Of a stretch of DNA of 64,000 nucleotides, positions 5,199 to 57,793 are shown in pieces. Made by a program: the position numbers and the translations under genes. The stretch comes from an uncultured Bacteroidales bacterium (lineage in GTDB: Bacteria > Bacteroidota > Bacteroidia > Bacteroidales > JAADJA01): positions 568,862 through 632,861 of the forward strand of contig CAWJBC010000021.1 in the NCBI GenBank assembly GCA_963840975.1, given 5' to 3'. The notes below the pieces were generated by a model, which was given only the letters and a program-made list of their open reading frames with translations, had not been told where the DNA came from and did not search any database. Position 1 is the first letter of the stretch; each line of letters begins with the position of its first letter.

Positions 5199-8100
5199 AT
5201 GAAGAATAGTTACAAAAAATCAAATCATACCGTTAAAAAAGATTCAATAAGTATGACCGAAATAAGGGAGCTGCTTGATGCACTCAGGGAGAGTGAAGAA
5301 AAATACAGGCAACTTCAGGAAAATGTTCCGATTGGTTTGTATCAAAGTACACCCGAAGGGGAATTGACCTATGTGAACAAATGGGCAGCCAAAATTTTGG
5401 GTTATAATGACCCGGAAGAATTGATCAAAAAGAATACCCACGACCTTTATGCCGACCCGAAAGTAAGAGTTGAAATTGTTAATTCGCTGACAAAAAATGG
5501 TTTTCTCAACGATACGGAAGTTCGATTGAAATGCCAGGATAATAGTGAGATTTGGGCAGTGATCAATGCCAAAACGGTCTATAAAAATAAGGTTGCGAAA
5601 AATTTTGATGGTTATATTTATAATATTACCGAGCGCAAAAAGGCATTGGAGCAACTGAAAGACAGCGAAGAGATGTTCAGGACAATTTCCCATAACCTGA
5701 AAAGCGCACTCTTTATCTTTAACTCTGATGGAAAATTCGAGTACATCAATCCGGCGATGACTGAAATTACCGGGTATTCACGAATGGACCTGATAGGAAC
5801 TGAGTTTTATAAAATTGTACATCCCGACTATGTTGAAATAGTGAAGTCACGTGGGTTTAACCGGCTGTTGGGCATTGATGTTCCCAAATCCTATGAGTTT
5901 AAGATATTAACAAAAGGCGGAAAAGAAAAGTGGATCGAAATACTGGCTACAAAACTAATTTTGAAAGGGAAATCTGTTGTAATGGGGTTGGGCAAAGATA
6001 TTTCGGATCACAAGGATGCACTGCAAATTATCAGGAATAGTGAACAGAAGTATAAAACCCTTTATTCTGTTTTTCGATTGATGGCTGATAATGTAACAGA
6101 TATGATCTGGGCGAAAGACCTAACAGGGAAATACATTTTTGCCAATAAGGCTATGTGTGATAAACTGCTGATGGCTAAAAATGTGGAAGAACCTATTGGG
6201 AAGACCGATATGTTTTTTGCTGAACGTGAAAGGAGAAAGCATCCGGACAATACTGAATGGCATACTTTCGGGGAGATATGTGGAAATACTGATCTGGTGG
6301 TTTTAAAGAGTAAAAAGCCGGAACGCTTTGATGAATATGGCAATATCCGGGGTAAATTTTTATTTCTTGATGTTATCAAGGCTCCCTTTATGGATGAAAC
6401 AGGGCAAATGATAGGAACTGTAGGAAGTGCACGGGATGTGACAAAAGAACGGCAAACGGAACAGGAACACCTTAGAATAGAAAAATTACAATCTGTAATA
6501 TATCGAATAAGTGCCGCATCAGGCGCTACAAGGGATCTGAAAGAACTGATAACCGTCATCCGCAACGAATTGGGGCAGGTTTTAGACACCACTAATTTCT
6601 ATATTGCCCTGTATGACCATGAAAAAAATGAAATTCAACTTCCTTTTTTTGTTGATGAAAATGATGACTTTACCAGTTTTCCCAAAGGTAAATCACTCAC
6701 CGGTCTGGTCATCACCCAAAAGAAGTCACTCTTGCTAAAAGAGAAAAACATAAGGGAACTTGAGGACTCAGGGTTACTTGATGCAATGGGAACACCTTCA
6801 AAGGTTTGGATGGGGGTGCCACTGATTGTGAAAGAAAATGTCATTGGAGCCATTGTCGTCCAGAATTATGATAACAGTGAAGCTTTTAACATGAAAGACC
6901 TTGACCTGCTGGAATACGTTTCAAGCCAGTTAGGTTTTGCCATCACCCAGAAACAAGCCGATGATGAATTGAGGGAAAGTGAAAAAAGGTTGAGGCAGAT
7001 CATTGATACGGTTCCACACATGATTTATGCAAAAGACAAAAGCGGCACCTTTATTCTTGCAAATAAAATGACTGCCGAATCATACGGACTTCCGGTGGAA
7101 AGAGTTGAGGGTCTCAGGCAATCGGCACTCCACGGTTACAAGGAGGAAGCAAAAAAATATGACCAGGATGATCAGCTTCTTTTTGAACAAGCGGAGTTGT
7201 TTATTTCGACCGAAGAGAAGTTTACCGACTTCAAAGGCGAGGAGCACATCCTGCAAACCATTAAAATTCCCTTCAATACGAATAATAAAGAAAAGGGATT
7301 GCTAGGCGTATCCATTGATATTACGGATAGAAAGAAATTTGAAAAAGAACTCAAGTTTGCCAAAGAAAAAGCGGAGGAATCTGACCGCTTAAAGACGGCT
7401 TTCCTGGCGAATATGTCGCACGAGATACGCACCCCTATGAATGCTATCATTGGTTTTTCGGAATTGTTGAACGATAGCGACCTGACGGTTGAAACCCGAA
7501 GGGAGTTTGTAAGATTGATAAGCGAAAGCAGCAGGATGCTTCTGAATTTGATTGAGGATATAATTGATGTTGCAAAAATTGAAGCTGAACAATTGAAAAT
7601 GATTCAGGGTCTATGCCAGGTAAACAATATCCTTGATGGGTTGGAAAGGCAATTTAAGAGTGAATTGACCAAGGCAACCAATTCTAAAATAACCCTCCGG
7701 GTAAAGAAGGGAAACCCTGATCCCAATTTAACCTTTATCACTGATCCGTTGCGTTTTAAGCAAGTAATGAACAACCTGATCGGAAATGCTTTCAAATTTA
7801 CTGAGGAGGGGATAATTGAGTTCGGTTACGAAATTCTGGAGGAAAAAATAATTCAATTCTATATCAAAGATACGGGTATAGGTTTGCCGGCGGATAAACT
7901 TACCGTTATTTTCGAAAGGTTCAGGCAGGCGGAAGAAAGCACCACCAAGGAATATGGAGGAACGGGACTGGGCCTGACCATTTCAAGGAAACTCATCGAA
8001 TTGATGGGAGGTACAATTTGGGTTGAATCGGTTTTGCATGTGGGAAGCACATTTTACTTTACACTTCCGTTTAAAGAGGTAAAAGAAAATGAAAAATTGA

Positions 8101-36856: not shown

Positions 36857-38224
36857 ATGAAAAACGTAATTTACATTATCACATTGCTCGCCGTATTTGG
36901 CTTGAGCAACACCTGTAATGCACAGACCATTGCAGGAGGCAGAGCTTTTTCTCTGGCGGTTTGCGACAATAATACCGTTAAGTCCTGGGGTGCCAATATT
37001 GCTGGTCAACTTGGAAATGGAACCTTTACCGACAGCAATGTTCCTGTTGCAGTAAGTTCTATTACCGGCATCACAGCCGTTGCATGTGGTGACCGTCATT
37101 CCCTTGCCCTGAAAAATGATGGTACAGTATGGGCATGGGGAGACAATAGCAATGGCGCACTTGGAAATGGTACCACCGCAAACAGCAATGTTCCCGTAGC
37201 AGTAAGTTCTCTCACCGGCATCACCGCCATTGCCGGCGGGCGTTACCATTCCGTTGCCCTCAAAAATGACAGCACTGTTTGGGCCTGGGGATTTAATGGT
37301 GAAGGTGCCCTTGGAAACGGAACTTACACCAATAGCAATGTCGCTGTTCCTGTAAGCTCGTTGACCGGCGTTATTGCCATTGCAGCGGGAACAAATTTCT
37401 CACTTGCCCTTAAAATTGATGGCACAGTATGGGCCTGGGGCTTCAATAATGATGGTGAGCTTGGAAATGGAACCAACACCAAAAGCAATGTTCCTGTTCC
37501 TGTAAACTCTCTCACAGGCATAACCAGTATATCAGCCGGATATTTTCATGGGCTTGCACTGAAAAATGATGGCAATGTCTGGGCTTGGGGATTTAATGCC
37601 AATGGCCAGCTTGGTAACGGGAATTACATCAATAGCAATATCCCTGTAGCAGTAATTTCACTGACAGGTGTTAATAAAATTGCTGCTGGAAGGTATCATT
37701 CGCTTGCCATAAAAAACAATGCAGTTTGGGCGTGGGGAAGAAATAATAGTGGCCAGTTGGGAAATGGAACCTTCGTCGGCGGCAATGTTCCGGTCCAGGT
37801 AAGTTCTCTTTTTAGTGTTACTAATATTGCAGCTGGTGAAGCACATTCTCTTTCCCGCGCAAGTGACAGTACTGCATGGGTTTGGGGAAGCAATGGCAAT
37901 GGTGAACTTGGAAACGGAACCAATACCAATAGCAATCTTCCTCTGCAAGTCTCGGAATTGTGCCCCGTATTATCTGTAAATGAAGTTGCTGTGCAGCTTT
38001 CCGCATCTGTTTTTCCTAACCCAAACAACGGACACTTTACATTAGCCCTTTCTACAGAAAAGGGAACTGTTGAAATGTTTAATCTGCTTGGAGAAAGAGT
38101 TTATCGTTCTGAAATTAAAAATCAGAATTCAGCAATTGATTTATCACACCAATCTAAAGGAATTTATTTTGTGAAGATTCGTGATGGGCAGCAAATGCAG
38201 ACAGTAAAGATAGTGATAGAGTAA
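36857..38224 (+). CDS. RCC1/BLIP-II repeat beta-propeller protein with T9SS C-terminal domain
   Basis: The 455-aa ORF has a signal peptide and about 7 repeats of HSLALKNDGTVWAWGxNxxGxLGNGT. The CTD reads VFPNPNNGHFTLAL...GIYFVKIRDG. Confidence 0.85.
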   Translation: MKNVIYIITLLAVFGLSNTCNAQTIAGGRAFSLAVCDNNTVKSWGANIAGQLGNGTFTDSNVPVAVSSITGITAVACGDRHSLALKNDGTVWAWGDNSNGALGNGTTANSNVPVAVSSLTGITAIAGGRYHSVALKNDSTVWAWGFNGEGALGNGTYTNSNVAVPVSSLTGVIAIAAGTNFSLALKIDGTVWAWGFNNDGELGNGTNTKSNVPVPVNSLTGITSISAGYFHGLALKNDGNVWAWGFNANGQLGNGNYINSNIPVAVISLTGVNKIAAGRYHSLAIKNNAVWAWGRNNSGQLGNGTFVGGNVPVQVSSLFSVTNIAAGEAHSLSRASDSTAWVWGSNGNGELGNGTNTNSNLPLQVSELCPVLSVNEVAVQLSASVFPNPNNGHFTLALSTEKGTVEMFNLLGERVYRSEIKNQNSAIDLSHQSKGIYFVKIRDGQQMQTVKIVIE

Positions 38225-38272: not shown

Positions 38273-38333
38273 CGTTAATACTGTTTCTGCTTAGCAGGCG
38301 AGCTAATGCTGGAGTGCTTCATGACGCTCAATA

Positions 38334-38414
38334 GCATTCCTGAAAACCAATAGGTTTATCAGGAATCCAGTAAAGGCTGTCGTTGTGGATTCCAGCCTAT
38401 GTAGGAATGCTTTC
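38334..38414. repeat. GC-rich hairpin modules (GCATTCCTGAAAACC.ATAGGTTTATCAGGAATCC plus GGATTCC.GCCT....AGGAATGC)
   Basis: The same two modules recur at 42896-43006 in the opposite order, and the first recurs at 44293-44330. Confidence 0.75.
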
Positions 38415-39742: not shown

Positions 39743-39820
39743 GCGAAATGAATTTAACCGTTGATTCTATTTTGAATAACCGCCACTCTTGTTGAAGTAT
39801 GAAGATTAGCAGGTGCATTT

Positions 39821-40158
39821 GCCTGCGCAGTAATGCTTCGTCGTCAAAGAGGATTCCACAATTAATTCTTGTCAATCTTAATTTTAGTCAATTTAGTCAT
39901 TGTGCTGGTTTCCTGCCTGCCCGACTGCATCATTAAGGCGGGCCTGCCCGACTGCGTCATTCCCGTCCGTTCCGGAACGGGCGGACAGGCGGGCCTGCGC
40001 AGTAATGCCACGTCGTCAAAGAGGAATCCACAATTAATTCTTGTCAATCTTAATTTTAGTCAATTTAGTCATTGTGCTGGTTTCCTGCCTGCCCGACTGC
40101 GTCATTCCCGTCCGTTCCGGAACGGACGGACAGGCGGGCCTGTGCAGGAATGCTTCGT
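39821..40158. repeat. tandem composite GC-rich repeat (2 units of 172 and 145 bp plus a partial third head)
   Basis: Unit heads GCCTG(C/T)GCAG lie at 39821, 39993 and 40138. Each unit runs ...CCACAATTAATTCTTGTCAATCTTAATTTTAGTCAATTTAGTCATTGTGCTGGTTTCCTGCCTGCCCGACTGC[27-bp module]GTCATTCCCGTCCGTTCCGGAACGG.CGGACAGGCGGGC. Unit 1 has one 27-bp module and unit 2 has none. Confidence 0.9.
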
Positions 40159-40441
40159 AAAGAATTGCTATCTGACGGTGATCAACTTGTATCATCCGAT
40201 ACTCAACCAAACAGATAACTTCCCAGATGACATTCATCCCAATGAAATGCTGAAAATAAATGTGGGTATCATTGCCAGCGAATTGAAAAAGTAACCTTAT
40301 CGGAGCAGCTTATCAGAATATCTTCAATTTTATAATGATAGTTGCGATGATAAATTCAGTATTTTTGGTCGTTGCATCGTCATCGATTGAAGATTACTAT
40401 TCAGAATAATTGGGTGTTGTTTAATCTTAAATAAAACAAAA

Positions 40442-42895: not shown

Positions 42896-43006
42896 GGATT
42901 CCTGCCTGCGCAGGAATGCTTCGTCGTAGCAAGGGAATTCATGGCTACGAAAGCATTCATGGACACAAAAGCATTCCTGAAAACCGATAGGTTTATCAGG
43001 AATCCA
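42896..43006. repeat. GC-rich hairpin modules (same family as 38334-38414)
   Basis: The region contains GGATTCCTGCCTGCGCAGGAATGCTTCGTCGT ... GCATTCCTGAAAACCGATAGGTTTATCAGGAATCC. Confidence 0.75.
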
Positions 43007-44052: not shown

Positions 44053-44292
44053 TAAGGAATTGAAATTAAACTGAATAAAAATTACCTGCTGCCAGCAGCG
44101 GTTTGTCAAAAGGCTGGCTGACGTGCTTCGTATGAACATTTGTGCTGAAAGCCCATCCTTCGCCAAGTGCCAAAACCGTTAATAATAATATCCCTTCACT
44201 TTTCTTACAGACTCAATCCAAAGCATAAGTCTTCTGACGAGTTATCACTAAATATAAAAGGAACGCCTTCCGGTATTCCTTTCTTTTCCACT

Positions 44293-44586
44293 AAGCATTC
44301 CTGAAAACCGATAGGCTTATCAGGAATCCACAATCCACAATTAATTCTTGTCATTCTTAATTATAGTCAATTTAGTCATTGTGCTGGTTTCCTGCCTGCC
44401 CGACTGCATCATTAAGGCGGGCCTGCCCGACTGCATCATTAAAGCGGGCCTGCCCGACTGCGTCATTCCCGTCCGTTCCGGAACGGGCGGACAGGCGGGC
44501 CTGCGCAGGAATGCCACGTCGTCAGAAGGGAATCCACAATTAATTCTTGTCAATCTTAATTTTAGTCAATTTAGTCATTATGCTGG
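44293..44586. repeat. second locus of the composite GC-rich repeat (about 1.4 units; the 27-bp module is present twice)
   Basis: The GCATTCCTGAAAACCGATAGGCTTATCAGGAATCC module comes first. The unit follows with CTGCCCGACTGC[ATCATTAAGGCGGGCCTGCCCGACTGC][ATCATTAAAGCGGGCCTGCCCGACTGC]GTCATTCCC.... The unit head then restarts at 44500-44586. Confidence 0.9.
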
Positions 44587-44683
44587 ATTCCTGTTCCCAC
44601 CTTACCCTAACCACCTTACCACCCCGGCTTCCTTACCCTTGCCATCACCCAACAAAAAAAGGAACCCCTTTCGGAATTCCTCT
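44582..44683 (+). repeat. ~100-nt repeat ending in a terminator-like hairpin, copy 1
   Basis: GCTGGATTCCTGTTCCCACCTTACCCTAACCACCTTACCACCCCGGCTTCCTTACCCTTGCC...AAAAAAAGGAACCCCTTTCGGAATTCCT is near-identical to 45862-45970. Confidence 0.85.
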
Positions 44684-44762
44684 CGAGCATTTCTTATGAA
44701 AACCTAATAATTTCTAGCCAATGGTAATGCCATGATTGCTGTCGGCAATCCATACGTGTTTT

Positions 44763-45544: not shown

Positions 45545-45861
45545 ATTATTACGTTTTAAGTTTATTTATAAAATGTCTGATTCTCTCTTTTATGCTTAAT
45601 TACTTTTTATTACCATGATTCACTTTCCGTATTTCAACCTTATCAAATAATAATTTACAAGCAAATTAATGATCAATACAGAAGGATAAAAAATTTAATT
45701 CGGTCAATCGGTAAATGCTGCTATTGAACCGGGATAATTTGAGCTTCAAGGGAAATTTCCTTATGTCATACGAAGTGTATGCGGTGGCCATTGTTATTCA
45801 ATCCGGTCTATCCTTCGATGCTTCGACAAGCTCAGCAGGACCTCATGATGACCGGCATTGT

Positions 45862-45970
45862 TCTGGATTCCTGTTCCCACCTTACCCCTACCACCTTACC
45901 ACCCCGGCTTCTTTACCCTTGCCTTTTTCCTTAATAAAAAAAGGAACCCCTTCCGGAATTCCTTTCTTCC
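45862..45970 (+). repeat. ~100-nt repeat ending in a terminator-like hairpin, copy 2
   Basis: The sequence is TCTGGATTCCTGTTCCCACCTTACCCCTACCACCTTACCACCCCGGCTTCTTTACCCTTGCC...AAAAAAAGGAACCCCTTCCGGAATTCCTTTCTTCC. On the minus strand the hairpin is followed by T7, downstream of gene 46113..47102. Confidence 0.85.
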
Positions 45971-46112: not shown

Positions 46113-47102
46113 CTATTCTTCTTCCTGGTCTATCAGCAAAAAGCTGTATTCCCCCTCATTTATTTCATCAGGGTTATAAACCATCAGGAACAGGTTGGTA
46201 TCGGCCCCAAGGTCAGAAGCAAATACTTCCGACTCATCGCCCGGAACAAGCTCTATAGCCGAACCCGGAACAGGGTCGGTAGGCAGCTTTGCCGTATAAA
46301 ATTTGAGCGATGTACCGCCAATGTTTGCAAGACTAAAATATGAATTGGCATCAAAGCCACCCTCAAGTATCGTAACCGATGCCAGTGCAGCTACCTTACC
46401 CGTTACGGGTTCGGGTGCCGGAGTGGAACCGTTTCCGTTTGCAGTGGAACGAAGCAAGCGCAGGTCGAAGAATTTTTCGATGAGCGACGGATTATCTTTG
46501 TATTTATCCATCAAGCTCCCCAGGTTGCCATAGAGCGTGTCGGCAGCTACCTTCCTTTTTATTTCCAGGATATCCGAAGCATCCTTGGTCAGTTCTTCGC
46601 AATGCGTCTGAACATTTCGTATTCCTAAAATATCTGTATGAAATTGATCCACATCTGTTTTTGTTGCCAACAGGGCAGCATAAGGTTTCAGGGCGGTGCC
46701 CATGGCATTGATGTTGCTGATCCTGATGTCGTAGGGTCCTTCGCGGAAACCGCTGCGTCCGTTAGGAAATATCTTTTTATAATCGGCAGTATCCTCAAGG
46801 TGTACTGCTCTAACCTGGGCGTCCCACTGTTTAATTTTAACATCAACAAGTTCTTCCAACTTCTCATTAAACCTAAAGGTTTCGCCCTCCCAGTTGCCTT
46901 TAGCAGCCGTCCAGCCGCTGTAGGCAATAGAATAATCCTCGTACACGGGAGTGGTACGGGTGAACAGAACTTCAATGTCCGGATCGGACTTCATTGCTTC
47001 CAGTTTCGAATAGCAATCCGTAATCAACAGAAGCATTTTCTTGTAACTGTTTTTTGTTGCGGTATCGAATAAATTCGATATGTACCGCCAAACTTTTTTC
47101 AT
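46113..47102 (-). CDS. hypothetical protein
   Basis: The 329-aa ORF has no signal peptide and no recognised motif. It has an acidic C-terminus. Confidence 0.6.
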   Translation of the reverse strand: MKKVWRYISNLFDTATKNSYKKMLLLITDCYSKLEAMKSDPDIEVLFTRTTPVYEDYSIAYSGWTAAKGNWEGETFRFNEKLEELVDVKIKQWDAQVRAVHLEDTADYKKIFPNGRSGFREGPYDIRISNINAMGTALKPYAALLATKTDVDQFHTDILGIRNVQTHCEELTKDASDILEIKRKVAADTLYGNLGSLMDKYKDNPSLIEKFFDLRLLRSTANGNGSTPAPEPVTGKVAALASVTILEGGFDANSYFSLANIGGTSLKFYTAKLPTDPVPGSAIELVPGDESEVFASDLGADTNLFLMVYNPDEINEGEYSFLLIDQEEE

Positions 47103-47289
47103 ACTTGAAAAAATTTAGTGAATAATTAAAAATTTCAATTCGAACAGTTGATGCTTTGATGTTATTTGCTAATACTTTTTGAAAAGAAAAAAGGTTTCAA
47201 AAAAAGTTAAAAATTTTATTTTTTTTTTACTGACTTCTTGTCAGTTTTTGGCTTATTTTTTCAAACCCGCGCCAATTGCGTCAGTGAAC

Positions 47290-47480
47290 GGTATTTTTAT
47301 TTGTGAACCTGTTTTTCGACGTCGAAAATGGCAATCTTCAATTGCAGATCACGTTTTTCGATGTCGAAAATGGCAGTTTTTATTTGTGAACCTGTTTTTC
47401 GACGTCGTAAAAGGCAATCTTGATTTGCGAATAGGGTTTTTCGACGCCGATAAAGGCAATTTTCATTTGAGGATTGCCTT
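47290..47480. promoter_or_regulatory. array of 4.5 direct repeats of 41-42 bp, each centred on a TTTTCGACGTCGAAAA-type palindrome (operator- or iteron-like)
   Basis: Units start at 47311, 47353, 47394 and 47436, with a partial unit at 47290-47310. The array lies in the divergent intergenic region between gene starts at 47102 (-) and 47956 (+). Confidence 0.6.
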
Positions 47481-47955
47481 TTATGCCGCCTTGCCGGGCA
47501 TTTGATATCCTTACTTATTTCCAATAATTAACCAAATATGATAGTATGGGTGAACAAAGCAGAAATAAATATAAACAGGCGGGTGGTAATAAATATAATT
47601 GCGATTTTAATTGTTGGTGAAAGGGAAGTTTATATATTTGCTGGACTATACTACTTATTTAATAGGACTTAAAAATTGATATACATAACTACCTGAAGTC
47701 TATATAATATCTAAACAAAGTTACATAAGCTAATAGTCGAACCTGAATTATTTAAGAATTAATATTCCTTGAAATAATAAAATAGTTGAAAAGGTAAATG
47801 TATAAATACGTTATGGGTGACAGATATAGAAACCAATTTCCTTCAAAATTTAATTAGAAAATTATCTAAAATAAGTATTGTAATTGATTGATTCTTTATG
47901 ACATTCTTACTGCGGAAATTTTTGATTAATGATTTAATGTAATAAAACTATAAAA

Positions 47956-49230
47956 ATGAAAACATTTTATTTTGTTCTATTGATTAGCCTCTGTTTGACA
48001 AGTTTGGCACAAGAATATACAATTTTTAGTGAACGTGAAGGCGTTAAGGAGCAACCTGTATTTAATATTTATCAAGAACAATCTGGAAGTATTATTTTTC
48101 AAGGAAATAAAGGGATTAATAGATGGGATGGTAAGAGTTGGTCCTTTTTTAACTTTAAAAACCCAGCAATGGGTAAAAAGTATCCTAAAGAATTTCCTGA
48201 TATACTTTCAAATAAAAATGGTTATGTTCTAATTCAAGTTAATGATACCGGTAGTATAGAATTAAATTCATTAGTGGGATATGATACGAAAATTGATAAT
48301 GAAGGAAACCTTTGGTTTCATGATTGGTTATCCCAAAAAATGTTGTACAAAATTGTGGGAAAAGAATGGGTACCTGTCGTCGATTTTCCTAAATCATCGT
48401 CTATTGCTATCGGAGAAGAGTTTGGTAAAGATGATGCAAGAATGTTTATTGATAGTAAAAACAATATTTGGATTCCAACATCAAAGGGTCTTTTTATGTA
48501 CGATTCAAATAAATTGATATCTTTTGGGGAGACATCTAATCTGCCAATTAGGGGTAATTGTACTTTTATGGAAGATTTAACAGGAAATATTTGGATTAGT
48601 TCCAAACATACCGGAATATACAAATATGATGGCATTAAGTGGGAACAGTATAATTCTGCAAATGCTGGGATTGTCAACAACCATATATGTTCTACTATTA
48701 TTGACAAGAATGGAAAAGTATGGGCTGCTCACTATAAAGGAGGTGTGAGCTTTTTTGATGGAAATAAATGGGTGAAAGAAGAACTAGGTGAAAATTATTA
48801 TGCTCCGGGTTTAAATGGAATAAGTGCAGGAGATATAATAATAGGATTAGCTGATGGAAGTGACTGGGACAAATTTCCTTCTCAAATAATTGCTGACAAC
48901 TTAAATAATATCTGGTATGCAGCAACAGGAGGAGGGCTTTTCAAATATGATGGTGCAAAATGGGAACAAATTCAAAAAGTTTCTCCCAATTCTTCTATTG
49001 AAATGATAATTGATTCAAAGGGAAATATTTGGTTTACCAATTATGCAAATATTGGTTCACAACCAGCTGAAGGATTATTTAAATTTGATATAAAAAATAA
49101 TACATGGAATTCCATCTTAAAGAAGAACATTCATAATCTTTTTGAAGATAAAAGTGGAAGTATTTGGTGTACTAGTCGTATAAACGGTCCGATAAGTGAA
49201 GAAGAAATATATTATTTCAAAAACAATTAA
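47956..49230 (+). CDS. secreted beta-propeller protein with two-component-regulator-propeller (Reg_prop)-like repeats
   Basis: The 424-aa ORF has a signal peptide and about 7 repeats of the type GNIWISSKHTGIYKYDGIKWEQY / NNIWYAATGGGLFKYDGAKWEQI. The gene is AT-rich; two 60-nt lines count 37-38% GC. Confidence 0.7.
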   Translation: MKTFYFVLLISLCLTSLAQEYTIFSEREGVKEQPVFNIYQEQSGSIIFQGNKGINRWDGKSWSFFNFKNPAMGKKYPKEFPDILSNKNGYVLIQVNDTGSIELNSLVGYDTKIDNEGNLWFHDWLSQKMLYKIVGKEWVPVVDFPKSSSIAIGEEFGKDDARMFIDSKNNIWIPTSKGLFMYDSNKLISFGETSNLPIRGNCTFMEDLTGNIWISSKHTGIYKYDGIKWEQYNSANAGIVNNHICSTIIDKNGKVWAAHYKGGVSFFDGNKWVKEELGENYYAPGLNGISAGDIIIGLADGSDWDKFPSQIIADNLNNIWYAATGGGLFKYDGAKWEQIQKVSPNSSIEMIIDSKGNIWFTNYANIGSQPAEGLFKFDIKNNTWNSILKKNIHNLFEDKSGSIWCTSRINGPISEEEIYYFKNN

Positions 49231-49642
49231 TGCCTGTTTTAATTATCCCTGTCATGTTTGAAAAAATTGGCTGTGACATGAGGTATCTCTTAAAAATGCC
49301 CCAACCATTTAATGTTACCAAACCATAAATTAGAAACAAAAACTAAAAATAACTCACTCCATGCCCCTCTTCCAAAACTCCGTCATAACAAAGTACCTGC
49401 AAGCCCAAAACAGGGAAAGGATTGCAGCGCAATGGAATGTATTTAAATCGCATTTCCTCAATCCGGTTATTCAGGAGAATATCAGACTAAGCAAGGAAGA
49501 ACAATACCAGGGGGAGTTCCTGATTGATTTGTTTGTAAAGGTACTGGGGTATACTAAAAATCCGGAACCGAACTTTAACCTCACCACCGAATACAAGAAC
49601 ATCAAGGACAGCAAAAAGGCGGATGGTGCCATCTTATTACAA

Positions 49643-49710
49643 CAAGGGGCTTCAGCCCCTTGCAAAAATGAAACCGGAGATGTTTCGAAGCAAGTAATTT
49701 CAGCCCCTTG
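49643..49710 (+). repeat. in-frame palindromic element pair (CAAGGGGCTTCAGCCCCTTG plus a half copy)
   Basis: A perfect 8-bp stem with a 4-nt loop lies at 49643-49662, and the half copy TTTCAGCCCCTTG lies at 49698-49710. The region translates as QQGASAPCKNETGDVSKQVISAPC. Confidence 0.9.
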
Positions 49711-50651
49711 TGTGGTTGGGGTGATTGAACTGAAAGGAACGAATACCACCGACCTGGGCAAGATTGAAACGCAGGCTTTCGGGTACAAGAACAACCAGCC
49801 CGATTGTGTTTATGTGATCACGTCGAACTTCGAGAAGCTGCGGTTTTATATTGACAATGCCATCGAGCACATCGAGTTTAATTTGTTTGCCCTCACGGAA
49901 AAGGATTTTGAATTGCTGTGGCTTTGCCTGGCTTATGAGAACATCGAAAAGGGAATTGCGAAAAAGATAAAGGATGAATCGGTCGGGCGGGAAGATGAAA
50001 TTACGAAGCAGCTTTATAAGGATTATTCGCTGTTCAAGCGGGAACTGCATCAAAACCTCGTGGCGCTGAATGCGGGTTACGGGGCGCTGGAACTTTTTAA
50101 GAAATCGCAGAAGCTGCTCGACCGGTTTTTGTTTTTGTTCTTTGCCGAGGATCGCATGTTGTTGCCTCCCAATTCGGTTAAGCTGGTGCTGAACGACTGG
50201 AAAGATTTGCAGGAAAGGGATGTGGACGTAACGCTTTACGAACGGTTTAAAAAGTATTTCGAATACCTGAACACCGGCTTTAAAGGCAAACGGTACGATG
50301 TGTATGCTTATAACGGCGGGTTGTTTAAACCGGATGCGGTGCTGGATGCCGTGAAGATTGACAGTGAACTGCTTTACCGGCATACGCACAGGCTTTCGGA
50401 ATATGATTTTGTGAGCGAGGTGGATGTGAACATACTGGGGCATATTTTTGAGAACTCGCTGAATGAGCTGGACGAAATAAAGGCGCAACTGGAGGGGAAG
50501 GAAATTGACAAGAGCAAGACCAAGCGCAAAAAGGACGGTGTGTTTTACACGCCCAAATACATTACCAAGTACATTGTGGATAATACCGTTGGCAAACTGT
50601 GCAGCGAAAAGAAAACCGAACTGCAGATAAACGAGGAGGAATACACATCAA

Positions 50652-50713
50652 CAAGGGGCTTCAGCCCCTTGCAGGAAAAGGACGCAAAACAAACAAGAGG
50701 CTTCAGCCCTTTG
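50652..50713 (+). repeat. in-frame palindromic element pair
   Basis: CAAGGGGCTTCAGCCCCTTG lies at 50652-50671 and CAAGAGGCTTCAGCCCTTTG at 50694-50713. The region translates as TRGFSPLQEKDAKQTRGFSPLP. Confidence 0.9.
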
Positions 50714-51139
50714 CCTAAAAAGGAAAAACAAAAGCAATTAGATAAACTAAATGAATATCGCAACTGGCTTTTGCAGCTTACCATTTGCGACCCGGCTTGT
50801 GGTTCGGGGGCTTTCCTGAACCAGGCTTTGGATTTCCTGATCAGGGAACACAAATACATTGATGAACTGCATGCCAAGCTGTTTGGCGATGCGCTGGTGC
50901 TGAGCGATATTGAAAACAGCATACTCGAAAACAATTTGTTCGGGGTGGACCTGAACGAGGAAAGCGTGGAGATAGCCAAGCTTTCGTTGTGGCTGCGAAC
51001 GGCACAACCCAACCGCAAGCTGAACGACCTGAACAACAACATCAAATGCGGCAACTCGCTGATTGATGACCCGGCAGTGGCAGGAGATAAAGCTTTTAAC
51101 TGGCAGAAGGAGTTTCCGAAGGTTTTTAAAGAGAAGAAT

Positions 51140-51658
51140 AAAAAGATATGGCATGTAACTACCGTCACACATGATACACGGACTTCGCAACGAATGATAG
51201 ACTACAAGGTACGGGAGCGAAGGTCTGACGGAGAAATGCATGTTGACCGATCTATCTTCTTGAATGACGAAGAATCGCTAAAACTTACCGAAATTATTTG
51301 CGATGTCATAATTGAAAATGAATTTAACTGCCTTGCCTACAATGTTTGCGGCGATCATGTTCATTTGATCCTGGTTTGCGAAGAAGATGAATTACCGGAA
51401 ATTGTACGAAAGCTGAAAGGCAAGTCGGCACAAAAGTTTAAGGAATACAAAGGAATAAATAAGGAAGAAACTTTCCATTTGTGGGCTCAAAAATTCAACA
51501 GCAAAGAAATTACCGGCGATGAGCAATTGAGTTCTACGATAAACTATATTGCGACAAACAGGGAAAAACATGAACTGCCCGACATCAACAAGGGGCTGCA
51601 GCCCCTTGTAAAGAAAATGACATGCACACTGGAACACGCATTTCGGACTGAGTATAAG
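51140..51658 (+). mobile_element. HUH (Y1) transposase-like module nested in-frame in the R-M gene
   Basis: The module reads IWHVTTVTHDTR..., GDHVHLIL (HUH at 51356-51364), KLKGKSAQKF, HLWAQKFNSKEI and INYIATNREKH (Tyr codon 51545-51547). It is flanked by MTase sequence: EFPKVFKEK upstream and KGGFDVVIGNPPY downstream. Confidence 0.65.
51589..51608 (+). repeat. in-frame palindromic element
   Basis: CAAGGGGCTGCAGCCCCTTG translates as NKGLQPLV. It shares the 5' flank ACATCAACAAGGGGC with the 50652 copy. Confidence 0.9.
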
Positions 51659-52792
51659 GGAGGGTTTGATGTGGTGATTGGGAATCCGCCGTATGTGGAG
51701 CAAGTTTAAATGAAGAGGATATTAACTATCTTTAGAAAAATTTACTTGACAGTTATAGATCATTCTGAGGTTTATTACTTATTCATTGAAAAAGCAGTAA
51801 ATGTTTTAGCAAAAAATGATGGCTATATTGGATATATTACACCAAATGCATGGTTGTCGAACAAATATGCAAAAAAATTACGTGAATTATTACTATATGA
51901 AACTACTTTTTTGAATATTGATTAATTTCAATCGAAAAATTGTTTTTGAGGAAGCAAATGTTGAAACTGCAATATTTATTTCGAAAAAAGTTTGACAATT
52001 AACAGAACATTTAGTTTTAGTTGGGCAAGATTTGAATAATTTATATCAATATGATTAAAATGAATGGAAACAAAATAATAACTACCTCATATCTATTGCG
52101 CCTGATCAGAAAATAAATCAAATAATTAAGAAAATAAATCTGGCAGAATATAGACTTGAAGATAAACTTGATATTTCTAATGGATTTAAACCATATCAAG
52201 TTGGATATGGAATAAACTTACAAGGTATTCCCTTAACTATTGAAGATGTTAACAGTCGTATCTATCATTCTGAATAAAAATGAAGATAATACTTTCAGGA
52301 GAGAAATTAAAGGGAAAGGTATGTAATAGATATTCTTTCAAATGGGAAGAAGAATTATATAAATTGGGGTAAATGGTTAGATGTCACCTAGAGAAGCATT
52401 CATTATTTGAACAACCAAAAATTATTAATCAGACAAGTTATTAGTGATTATTTCTATGCATTTTTGGATAAGGATAAATATTTTGCAGATCAATACGTTA
52501 TATGTATGCACTAATTATAATGGATAAAGAAAAGGAAAATTTAGAATATCTATTTATGTCTAATTAAACAGCAAATTATATCGGTTTTTATCATTAGAAA
52601 GTTATATTCAGAAGAAGATCGATTTATTTCCAAAAATAAAGGTTAATGAGTTAAAAAATCTTCCAATAAAGAAATTAGAAAAAGAAAATCAACAACCTTT
52701 TATCGAGAAAGCAGACCTAATGCTTTCCTTAAACAAGGAATTGCAGGAAACCTCACAAAAATTCCAAAGGACCTTACAGCGAAGACTGGAAA

Positions 52793-54253: not shown

Positions 54254-54278
54254 ACGAAAAATTAATGAAATATTTAAA

Positions 54279-54373
54279 CCCCCGCACCCGTGAGTGTTCC
54301 GCAGGATCACTTGTTGGAATAGGCCCGCCTGAATGAAGCAGTCGGGCAGGTAAGCAAAGTTTTTAACTTTGCC
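54279..54373 (+). repeat. left direct repeat bracketing the 54.5-55.6 kb cassette
   Basis: The sequence is CCCCCGCACCCGTGAGTGTTCCGCAGGATCACTTGTTGGAATAGGCCCGCCTGAATGAAGCAGTCGGGCAGGTAAGCAAAGTTTTTAACTTTGCC. Confidence 0.85.
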
Positions 54374-54548
54374 AGCATAAGCATAGCTCGCTTGCGATTG
54401 TATCGCGGGATTTAAAGTTTATCAGAATTACCCCGGTTTGGGATTGGAATCTGGTTACTTCCAAAATAATCAAATAATTTTGAACCAGATTGAGAAGAAC
54501 GGGAAATGAAGGAGGTTTCACTTTTGGGAAATATTGTATTTTTGTTAA

Positions 54549-55561: not shown

Positions 55562-55629
55562 AACTGTACATAATAGCCGCTTACTAGCCAGTGCGACGGG
55601 TTTCGCTAGACTTCAAAGTTTTCGGTTGA

Positions 55630-55774
55630 CCCCCGCACCCGCGAGTGTTCCGCAGGATCACTCGTGGGAATAAACCCGCCTGAATGACTAATTCGGGTAG
55701 GCCCACCTGTCCGCCCGTTCCGGAACGGACGGGAATGAAGCAGTCGGGCAGGTAAGCAAAGTTTTTAACTTTGC
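55630..55774 (+). repeat. right direct repeat bracketing the cassette (with an extra internal palindrome module)
   Basis: The sequence is CCCCCGCACCCGCGAGTGTTCCGCAGGATCACTCGTGGGAATAAACCCGCCTGAATGA[...GGCCCACCTGTCCGCCCGTTCCGGAACGGACGGGAATGA]AGCAGTCGGGCAGGTAAGCAAAGTTTTTAACTTTGC. The bracketed part is the reverse complement of the core of the 39.8/44.4 kb repeat. Confidence 0.85.
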
Positions 55775-55933
55775 ATGCGTGAGTATACAGAATTGAAACA
55801 ATGGGCTAATCCGGTTAACAATGGAATGAAGTATGAAATGAAACCCACAAGTCAACGCCATCACATAAGGCAAGGCAGGAAAACATTCGGGTGGTGAGAT
55901 CAAAGCTGTGACTGTTAAATACCCGTGGTCAGG

Positions 55934-57147: not shown

Positions 57148-57793
57148 TGCCCGTAGGGCATGAATATCAATAGAAAATTAATTCGCATGAAATTTCTTTC
57201 CCATAGGGAATGTACAACATGCAATCATTCAAGCTAAAGGATCAATATCTATTCAACAAGCTTAAAAATGTATCGTTCGTCATATTCAATATCATATTCT
57301 TTAAGAAACTGAAGGTATTCTTCACGAAAGGATACTTTCTTATGATGCTGTTGTTGGTCTTCAATATATTTGATTTTTTCAGGTAATTGTGATTTACCGA
57401 GTGAAAATGCTCCAAATCCCTCCTGCCACGAAAACTTTCCAACTGATAAATGGTTTTGATTTATCCATAAGGATGTACTTCTTTTTAAATGATACATCAA
57501 ATCCGAAGGTGCTTGTTTTGGGCTCATACTGATCAATATATGAATATGATCGCTCATCCCGTTGATTATATACAATTTATGTCCTTGTTGAATAATAATG
57601 CCATTCATGTATTTGTAAATGTCCTCTTGCCATTTTCGATGGATAAGGCATAAACGATCCTGAACTGCAAAAACATAATGAATGTACAATTGGGTATAGG
57701 TATTAGCCATATTTTTATTGTTTTTGTTAATGTCCTACGGACAATTTATTTTGTTTATTTATTTGTTCTATTGACATATAAGCCCTACGGGCT
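57148..57793 (-). mobile_element. RAYT/IS200-like unit: a Y1 transposase gene flanked by inverted REP hairpins
   Basis: The left flank reads TGCCCGTAGGGCATGAATATCAATAGAAAA (57148-) plus TTCCCATAGGGAA (57198-57210). The reverse complement of the right flank reads AGCCCGTAGGGCTTATATGTCAATAGAACA (to 57793), with TGTCCTACGGACA at 57731-57743. Confidence 0.7.
57249..57710 (-). CDS. IS200/RAYT-family Y1 (HUH) transposase
   Basis: The 153-aa ORF has YTQLYIHYVFAVQDR, the HUH motif SDHIHILIS, WQEGFGAFS and KYIEDQQQHH. Confidence 0.85.
   Translation of the reverse strand: MANTYTQLYIHYVFAVQDRLCLIHRKWQEDIYKYMNGIIIQQGHKLYIINGMSDHIHILISMSPKQAPSDLMYHLKRSTSLWINQNHLSVGKFSWQEGFGAFSLGKSQLPEKIKYIEDQQQHHKKVSFREEYLQFLKEYDIEYDERYIFKLVE

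Follow-up and report, generated by a model that had tools for sequence, protein, structure and literature searches.

A palindromic 42-bp repeat array upstream of an uncharacterized gene family in Bacteroidota

A 64-kb stretch of DNA from an uncultured Bacteroidales bacterium (referred to here as the window, in whose positions coordinates are given) carries a short array of direct repeats, each built around a palindrome, between two divergent genes, one of which encodes a protein of 329 amino acids (aa). The question that this locus raises is what such an array does: whether it is bound by a protein, transcribed, translated, used as the origin or centromere of a mobile replicon, or without function. 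Comparison with other loci that carry homologues of the 329-aa gene (designated by L-numbers) revealed 42-bp arrays with lineage-specific palindromes upstream of its relatives in at least six Bacteroidota lineages. We tentatively favor the view that the array is a conserved upstream control region of the 329-aa gene, offering dyad sites to a dimeric, sequence-specific DNA-binding protein.

The repeat array in the window

The 329-aa gene, the array and the DNA between them comprise the following features:

46113 to 47102, minus strand: the 329-aa gene, member of a large uncharacterized family and the only partner of the array that is conserved across lineages
47103 to 47228, minus strand: AT-rich DNA directly upstream of the 329-aa gene, presumed to hold its promoter and 5′ untranslated region
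47229 to 47245: short palindrome ACTGAC-TTCTT-GTCAGT between the 329-aa gene and the array, with a T-run (T5) after the stem on the plus strand only
47263 to 47272, plus strand: the motif AAACCCGCGC at the gene-proximal array edge, as read from the sequence
47269 to 47310: unit 0, degenerate and gene-proximal, with the B-type tail TTTTTATTTGTGAACCT at 47294 to 47310, taken from a print-out of the units in register and identical in L003
47311 to 47352: unit 1, 42 bp, A-type, with the palindrome arms TTTTCGAC and GTCGAAAA abutting at 47313 to 47328 and GGCAAT at 47330 to 47335
47353 to 47393: unit 2, 41 bp, B-type, palindrome at 47355 to 47370 with 1 mismatch
47394 to 47435: unit 3, 42 bp, A-type, palindrome at 47396 to 47411 with 1 mismatch, GGCAAT at 47413
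47436 to 47481: unit 4, palindrome at 47438 to 47453 with 2 mismatches, GGCAAT at 47455, ending in AAAGGCAAT-N12-ATTGCCTTT

Direct reading of the sequence places unit starts at 47311, 47353, 47394 and 47436 (periods 42, 41 and 42 bp), just as an initial annotation of this DNA had them, and Tandem Repeats Finder (TRF) agrees, reporting 4.1 copies of period 42 at 47299–47469 (75% matches) along with 2.1 copies of period 83 at 47293–47469 (82% matches). Two subtypes of unit can be distinguished, A (units 1, 3, and 4), ending in GGCAATCTTCAATTGCAG, and B (units 0 and 2), ending in GGCAGTTTTTATTTGTGAACCT, and their alternation produces the higher-order repeat of about 83 bp (units 1+2 and 3+4) that the annotation had described; a repeat search likewise returned two 83-nt copies in the array with 83% identity. 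The partial unit that had been placed at 47290–47310 is present, although it reaches back farther, to about 47269. In unit 1, TTTTCGACGTCGAAAA at 47313–47328 forms a perfect 16-bp palindrome, which units 2, 3, and 4 carry with 1, 1, and 2 mismatches, in keeping with the earlier statement that only the first copy is intact. A second, smaller inverted repeat is perfect in unit 1 (GCAAT-N5-ATTGC, 47331–47345) and imperfect in unit 3, and takes the form GGCAAT-N12-ATTGCC in unit 4. The hairpin previously noticed at the array end was found as well, with arms AAAGGCAAT at 47452–47460 and ATTGCCTTT at 47473–47481 separated by 12 nt. The list of open reading frames (ORFs) confirms the divergent gene starts on either side at 47102 (minus strand) and 47956 (plus strand).

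The array occupies a single locus. Its 23-mer core, GTTTTTCGACGTCGAAAAWGGCA, has four matches in the window at two mismatches or fewer, whereas none of 100 shuffles gave any; no further copy of the unit was found in the 64 kb even at three mismatches on the 16-mer, and no single extra operator site was found elsewhere in the window. A degenerate 23-mer that fits all four units had no match in Joint Genome Institute (JGI) metagenomes or in IMG/VR, and two single chance matches (Marinospirillum and a metagenome-assembled genome (MAG) of Lacipirellulaceae) in 185,579 GTDB genomes. We therefore rejected a dispersed miniature inverted-repeat transposable element (MITE), given one locus in the window and databases empty but for chance matches, the source genome lying outside those collections; the initial annotation had named such an element as the finding that would overturn it. 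Like MITEs and repetitive extragenic palindromes (REPs) with their bacterial interspersed mosaic elements (BIMEs), the units are short, palindromic and intergenic, in a window rich in other such repeats and in IS200-like Y1 genes; unlike them, they occur at one locus, all in direct rather than alternating orientation, and in synteny with one gene family. Clustered regularly interspaced short palindromic repeats (CRISPR) were also considered and rejected, since the 26 bp between palindromes are themselves repeated in the A and B subtypes, so that the whole 42/83-bp unit is the repeat. Against Rfam, the only match was a spurious one to mir-304 (E = 0.3), far below the gathering score.

A close relative separates the constant part of the array from the variable part. 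In L003 (ENA ERZ25039527), a contig from a strain with a 99%-identical version of the 329-aa gene, units 0–4 differ from ours by one base; the two sequences diverge directly after AAAGGCAAT of unit 4, where L003 has 60 extra nt that include a decayed fifth unit, before identity resumes. L003 thus lacks the terminal hairpin, which together with the TTAT that follows it is strain-specific. A terminator scan found no terminator-like site flanking the arrays of L004 and L018, and the sole terminator-like site that it returned is ACTGAC-TTCTT-GTCAGT with T5, on the plus strand at 47229–47245 of the window, on the gene side of the array. The proposal of a transcribed array of hairpins closed by a terminator is therefore not supported in the form in which it had been stated, with the hairpin missing in L003 and no such site in L004 or L018.

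Arrays upstream of homologous genes

The loci compared were the window with L003, L004, L005, L006, L013 with L014, L015, L016 with L017, and L018 with L019. L020–L023 carry the same protein (P0019) as L018 and L019 on upstream DNA too short for an array check, four further metagenome contigs with a homologue end at the gene start, and two further JGI loci, with upstream intergenic regions of 705–760 bp, were not part of the array comparison. A 42-bp-period array stands upstream of the gene, in the same orientation, in 6 of the 8 lineages with enough upstream DNA, at loci whose protein identity to the window gene ranges from 99% down to about 37%. Besides the window and L003, the arrays are:

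L004: 76% protein identity; 42 bp × 4.5 and 84 bp × 2.9, about eight units by register; palindrome TTTTCGA-AG-TCGAAAA
L013 and L014: 69% protein identity; 42 bp × 6.3; palindrome arms TTATTAAC and GTTAATAA, abutting
L015, on a 502-kb contig: 41% protein identity; 42 bp × 4.1; palindrome CAAAGGA-GT-TCCTTTG
L016 and L017: 37% protein identity; 42 bp × 4.1; palindrome arms AATAAC and GTTATT, abutting
L018 and L019: 44% protein identity over 42% of the query; 42 bp × 3.4; palindrome GGCAAATT-TTTG-AATTTGCC

The array lies 80–320 bp from the gene in the six lineages, and the only TRF arrays of period 42 or 84 in these loci are those upstream of the gene. Autocorrelation peaks at lag 42 (0.80–0.85 identity) in L004, L013 and L015, and at lag 83 in the window and L003, while units within an array are 73–87% alike by TRF. 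What lies on the far side of the array varies: a two-component regulator propeller (Reg_prop) gene in the window, a type I restriction-modification (RM) system in L004, a protein with a type IX secretion system (T9SS) tail plus a terminator in L015, and, in L018, small called ORFs (not assessed) with a fragment of a phage-integrase gene farther out. Because these far-side genes differ between loci, the array is linked to the 329-aa gene and neither to the AT-rich block on its right nor to the right-hand gene. At the gene-proximal array edge, AAACCC(G) can be read from the sequence in five lineages: the decamer AAACCCGCGC is also present in L018, and AAACCC variants occupy the same position in L004, L013 and L016.

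The unit sequence itself changes from lineage to lineage. Consensus units of the window and L004 agree at 36 of 42 positions, whereas the other pairs (all rotations, both strands) agree at 16–19 of 42, with the exception of L015 and L016 at 23 of 42; shuffled units averaged 17.8, with a 95th percentile of 20 that this last pair exceeds, so that agreement has otherwise fallen to chance level. Yet each lineage keeps a palindrome of its own. Shuffles of the respective consensus unit seldom produced as good a dyad: the numbers per 5000 that reached the observed arm length were 40 for the window, 112 for L004, 6 for L013, 19 for L015, 511 for L016 and 29 for L018. Between the window and L013, two positions are altered in both arms (C..G to T..A; G..C to A..T) with the symmetry kept. 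Copies of the motif GRCAAW, spaced 42 bp apart and without exception on the non-gene strand, are found in the window, L003, L015, L016 and L018. Mismatches within the palindromes (25 other, 9 A-C, and 5 G-T) fall in the chance ratio, with no wobble bias on either strand. That diverged units each keep their own palindrome, with no G-U bias and with cores that in some lineages consist of A-T pairs alone, favors recognition of double-stranded DNA by a dimeric protein. A fixed outer half-site (GRCAAW) around a varying center is typical of protein-DNA recognition, and loopless perfect dyads, a kept half-site, a spacing of 4.0 turns and a tolerated 41-bp unit are together the signature expected of a dimeric DNA-binding protein on one helix face.

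The mechanism that we propose is as follows. A dimeric, sequence-specific protein would bind the dyad-symmetric sites, one per 42-bp unit; as 42 bp amounts to 4.0 turns at 10.5 bp per turn, all sites would face the same side of the helix, where they may be occupied cooperatively or wrapped into a single nucleoprotein complex, and this complex would set the expression of the adjacent 329-aa gene. The array would be ancient in the gene family and kept homogeneous by concerted evolution, its site sequence drifting jointly with the specificity of the binding factor, for which the family protein itself and an unlinked regulator are both candidates. What is observed is a palindromic array of exact period that is linked to the gene family in a conserved orientation; from this we infer the binding of double-stranded DNA by a protein, the regulation of the gene that would follow and the candidates for the binder. 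Cooperative operator sites for a dimeric regulator had already been suggested in the initial annotation, and that suggestion fits the comparative data best (42-bp period, kept palindromes, no wobble, A-T-only cores).

Some of the same observations could be expected of a tandem satellite without function that arose once upstream of the ancestral gene and was kept by unequal crossing-over and gene conversion, its palindromes being by-products. Such a satellite would account for edge units that have decayed beside homogenized central ones, for a distal array boundary that differs even between copies of a 99%-identical gene (window versus L003), for the two lineages without an array (L005 and L006), and for an array to which no binding factor, transcript or phenotype has yet been assigned. 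It would hardly hold exactly 42 bp per unit across proteins of 37–44% identity while the unit sequences randomize, nor would it be expected to show a significant palindrome in every lineage, for which the joint probability is far below 1e-8 even with the window and L004 counted as one; GRCAAW, moreover, keeps its strand and its 42-bp spacing. We consider a neutral satellite distinctly unlikely.

A period of 42 bp also corresponds to 14 codons, and the array might thus be a present or recent small divergent gene for a protein of 14-residue repeats (42 = 3 × 14), of which the window copy would be a pseudogene. In every lineage the period is divisible by three, and repeat peptides can be read in the window (FFDVENGNLQLQIT) and in L004 (VFEVENSNPQLQIR). 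The array is crossed by an open frame of about 103 aa in L013, by called genes of 69 aa in L004 and 70 aa in L018, and by an open frame in L015 as well. Differences between the units of L004 favor third codon positions (111 versus 62 and 55), and its 10 invariant columns include no third position (uncorrected p about 0.009). This codon signal, however, fails correction for 18 tests, the other five arrays have no clear bias, and an open frame in at least one of the six frames is expected for any 42-bp unit. The frames of the window and L003 are broken by the 41-bp unit and an in-frame TGA, the open frame of L015 lies in another register relative to the palindrome, and called ORFs are inconsistent in strand, that of L016 being on the gene strand and those of L004 and L018 opposite. 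The peptides VFEVENSNPQLQIR, GQIFEFAGYEKFIT and NNVICLIPDKKSNM are unrelated between lineages in both sequence and charge. Where GAC has become AAC (Asp to Asn), GTC has changed, synonymously, to GTT and thereby restored the palindrome, which points to selection on the DNA dyad. A coding array is thus improbable, and the public gene calls of 63–174 aa on or beside the arrays (L004 5609–5818; L018 783–995 and 992–1183; L016 3402–3926) are likely annotation artefacts of multiple-of-three repeat DNA, in which case gene callers have repeatedly put spurious ORFs of 60–170 aa on 42-bp arrays.

The partner protein and known repeat-based systems

If the array is a set of binding sites, the adjacent protein is one candidate for the binder. 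The 329-aa protein had no match in Pfam, NCBIfam, PHROG or PADLOC, and a PDB sequence profile search returned nothing below E = 0.5. Homologues occur in metagenomes, and a profile search of 1.84 billion cluster representatives recovered 1872 clusters (at 50% identity) with E ≤ 1e-3, 648 of them with E ≤ 1e-30; members are nearly all 315–330 aa long, and the few with names are entries called "hypothetical protein" from Bacteroidales or Bacteroidota MAGs. Its AlphaFold2 model (mean predicted local distance difference test, pLDDT, of 84.5) consists of two helices of about 60 residues (41–100 and 142–200), short connecting helices, an eight-strand beta-sandwich (233–324) and an acidic tail. Foldseek searches of PDB and BFVD gave generic jelly-roll matches (PirA, Ena, cupins, and small phage proteins) or long-helix matches, with whole-chain template modeling (TM) scores below 0.3. 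In some relatives the C-terminal domain is replaced by another, such as a PKD-like one, and the N-terminal domain is neutral to basic in many members.

Several observations weigh against the operator reading, and concern both this protein and the array. The model contains no helix-turn-helix (HTH), ParB or other recognized DNA-binding fold, nor a ToxN-like one, and the sole conserved neighbor of the array is acidic, with an isoelectric point (pI) of 4.75 in a family that spans pI 4.6–5.5; no DNA-binding protein is linked to the array. Drifting sites imply a dedicated, co-evolving factor, which would be awkward if it were encoded elsewhere. Edge units decay, as in any tandem array, and the six array-bearing lineages examined come from about 1900 clusters. 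Two lineages have no array, L005, where the corresponding region is filled by a GC-rich dispersed repeat of a family abundant in the window too, and L006, which offers 386 bp of upstream sequence only. Finally, the promoter of the 329-aa gene was not placed: no match to TAnnTTTG, the -7 box of Bacteroidota in its strict form, turned up near the genes, so that the promoter position given above is presumptive. Scans for sigma-70 promoters in the window, L004 and L018 stayed at chance level. A sigma-54-type promoter (GG-N10-GC) was considered and showed no fit by eye, the array unit having GG-N12-GC.

A different role for the same sequences would be that of an RNA: the array would be transcribed, and its 42-nt units would be the RNA partner of the 329-aa protein, as in type III toxin-antitoxin systems. 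Type III loci consist of tandem repeats, a short palindrome and a gene, with repeats of 31–62 nt in 1.9–5.6 copies and gaps of up to 340 bp, and their repeat sequences vary widely between homologues, often in defense contexts (PMC3401426). Array layout, repeat length, copy number and gap of our loci fall within these published ranges (PMC3401426). The window, L004 (TGTCAA-ATCA-TTGACA, about 5828–5845) and L018 (CTATGTAA-TT-TTACATAG, about 974–995) each have a short palindrome at the same place between gene and array; unit sequences co-vary with the protein lineage, and a unit cut at the palindrome centers would close into an 8-bp stem. Defense genes are found nearby, namely the type IIG RM and HNH genes of the window, type I RM and GmrSD in L004, and a CD-NTase in L016, although this association is anecdotal.

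The resemblance to toxIN, cptIN and tenpIN, then, extends to tandem repeats of 31–62 nt upstream of a gene, an intervening palindrome and strong repeat divergence, and ends at the protein and the repeat type, which here are an acidic protein of about 320 aa unrelated to the endoribonuclease toxins and imperfect repeats around perfect dyads of DNA type. We found no similarity to ToxN, CptN or TenpN, and the protein is twice the usual toxin size. The upstream tandem repeats of a type III locus are present, and a gene-strand terminator is not: the intervening palindrome has its T-run on the opposite strand in the window, and none was predicted in L004 or L018. Units of one array are no more than 73–87% alike, the stems lack a G-U bias, and the cores of L013 and L016 are almost pure A-T, with best single-unit RNA folds of only -3.1 to -6.7 kcal/mol. 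Whole arrays fold better than shuffles on both strands (z -2.5 to -5.9), which is expected of any palindrome array and hence uninformative. Between array and gene, moreover, TTTTTTTGAAACC on the gene strand (about 47193–47205) aligns with TTTTGTAACC of L004, L005 and L006, and this common block, read as promoter-like, suggests that the gene has its own promoter. An RNA partner is accordingly rather unlikely in our estimate, and the palindrome between gene and array, which differs in sequence in each of the three lineages, could be an extra operator.

A broader possibility would combine elements of both readings, in that the array and the protein of about 320 aa may form an undescribed two-part module spread broadly over Bacteroidota, with about 1900 protein clusters. 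Its protein would recognize its own lineage-specific units through a fold not yet known to bind nucleic acid, either as processed RNA (a new RNA-protein toxin-antitoxin or abortive-infection class unrelated to ToxN) or as a self-assembling DNA nucleoprotein array. We regard such a module as unlikely.

The architecture is also strikingly similar to that of a plasmid centromere, sopC of the F plasmid, whose twelve 43-bp repeats each contain a 16-bp inverted repeat bound by SopB (PMC3177203). It shares with sopC a near-equal repeat length (43 versus 42 bp), one 16-bp inverted repeat in each unit, a single orientation and a position beside the gene or genes served; it differs in having no sopA or sopB, no plasmid, no ParB fold or HTH, a single gene, 3–8 copies versus 12, and degenerate units. 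With a block of 25% GC adjoining the array in the window, there is in addition a likeness to the palindromic iterons beside an AT-rich block in ori lambda, and the initial annotation had raised iterons next to an AT-rich unwinding region as an alternative. It is nevertheless highly improbable that the array belongs to a relic plasmid, phage or integrated element, be it as the iterons of such an origin or as a sopC-like partition site. The search for a neighboring Rep gene that had been recommended came back empty, none of the 19 ORFs scanned in the window (about 30.0–61.3 kb) encoding Rep, ParA or ParB; these are ordinary chromosomal Bacteroidota genes, encoding T9SS-tailed proteins, a peptidase, GNAT, type IIG RM, HNH and IS200-like transposases. 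No DnaA box (TTWTNCACA) occurs in 47100–47955. The repeat architecture is thus that of sopC, with neither ParA/ParB alongside nor a plasmid or prophage replicon around it, and of the marks of an iteron origin there is no Rep initiator beside the array, no conserved AT element and no DnaA box. The protein family had no tblastn match in 72,556 plasmids or 50,697 phages, and none in IMG/VR. L015 has its array on a 502-kb chromosomal contig, directly against the terminator of the gene upstream and with no AT block, and the AT block of the window is the upstream region of the 424-aa gene to its right. The array travels with the 329-aa gene, and we conclude that the origin or centromere reading, including the iteron proposal, is largely refuted.

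Among operator and iteron arrays in general, such as the four palindromic O-binding iterons of ori lambda, ParR/parC and the heptads of omega proteins, periods are 7–24 bp and the cognate binder is encoded alongside. Our array shares with them helically phased, repeated candidate sites for a dimeric protein, which would form a higher-order complex upstream of controlled genes, and differs in its period of 42 bp and in having only candidate binders. The array therefore resembles known phased protein-binding repeat arrays, and is attached to an uncharacterized gene family.

Flanking DNA, other repeats and implications

To the right of the array, two features complete the divergent intergenic region:

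47490 to 47955: AT-rich block, 25.3% GC, among the lowest in the window; present in L003, absent in L015
47956 to 49230, plus strand: 424-aa Reg_prop gene with an N-terminal signal-like segment, 31.5% GC

The GC counts of 18/60 and 17/60 given earlier for two 60-nt lines of this DNA are exact. The window, L003 and L004 all have an AT block. Because the block runs on into the low-GC gene, it is read as the upstream region of that gene and is no conserved part of the array module. The Reg_prop gene, in turn, is outside the module, for it adjoins the array only in the window and L003. At 31.5% GC versus 40% for the window, it looks compositionally foreign, and a protein identical to its product is present in Logan run ERR12035938 and in ENA ERZ25039527. 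Over the 64 kb, a GC content below 27% in 450-nt windows is reached at 47500–48300 and 51700–52750 only, the second of these very AT-rich stretches coming directly after a truncated RM gene.

This type IIG RM gene (49361–51709, plus strand) aligns with its PADLOC profile over the first half alone (residues 1–590 against 1–554 of 1066), and contains an in-frame IS200-like Y1 transposase domain (aa 630–732) between methylase motif I and NPPY, with a stop right after NPPY. A REP-like palindrome, AACAAGGGGCTTCAGCCCCTTGC, has five copies (49641, 50650, 50692, 51587 and 52791), four of which are inside the RM ORF and read through in frame (e.g., TRGFSPLQ), a pattern that recalls in-frame palindromic insertions. 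An IS200-like Y1 transposase gene that stands by itself (57249–57710, minus strand; Pfam Y1_Tnp, E = 2e-25) is a possible mobilizer of the palindromic repeats of the window.

Other repeats are plentiful. A GC-rich dispersed family (CCTGCCCGACTGC... / AGGCCCGCCTGAATGAAG...) is found in both orientations at 39743–40175, 44334–44640, 54278–54385 and 55629–55787; it includes a 27-bp × 2.7 tandem at 44394–44467, and occurs in L005 at 1475–1538, where the 42-bp array is missing. Three more small dispersed families lie in intergenic DNA to the left of the 329-aa gene (44576–44660 and 45856–45940; 38329–38369, 42966–43006 and 44290–44330; 44250–44283, 44651–44684 and 45933–45966), one of them being a hairpin, CATTCCTGAAAACC-ATAGG-TTTATCAGGAATCCA, placed after genes like a terminator. 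A tandem repeat of 150-bp period at 36994–37647 is coding, and corresponds to the RCC1 repeats of a T9SS-secreted protein (36857–38224).

If the operator reading holds, a conserved cis-element architecture, in which the period is exactly 42 bp, each unit has one dyad and the sequence drifts by lineage, would be tied to a large Bacteroidota family of uncharacterized function, and would provide the first functional handle on that family in the form of a predicted cognate nucleic-acid site that co-varies with the protein clade. It would also offer a test system, outside plasmids, for the co-evolution of helically phased multi-site arrays and their binding factors. Were the array the RNA partner of the protein instead, it would define a novel RNA-protein system akin to type III toxin-antitoxins.

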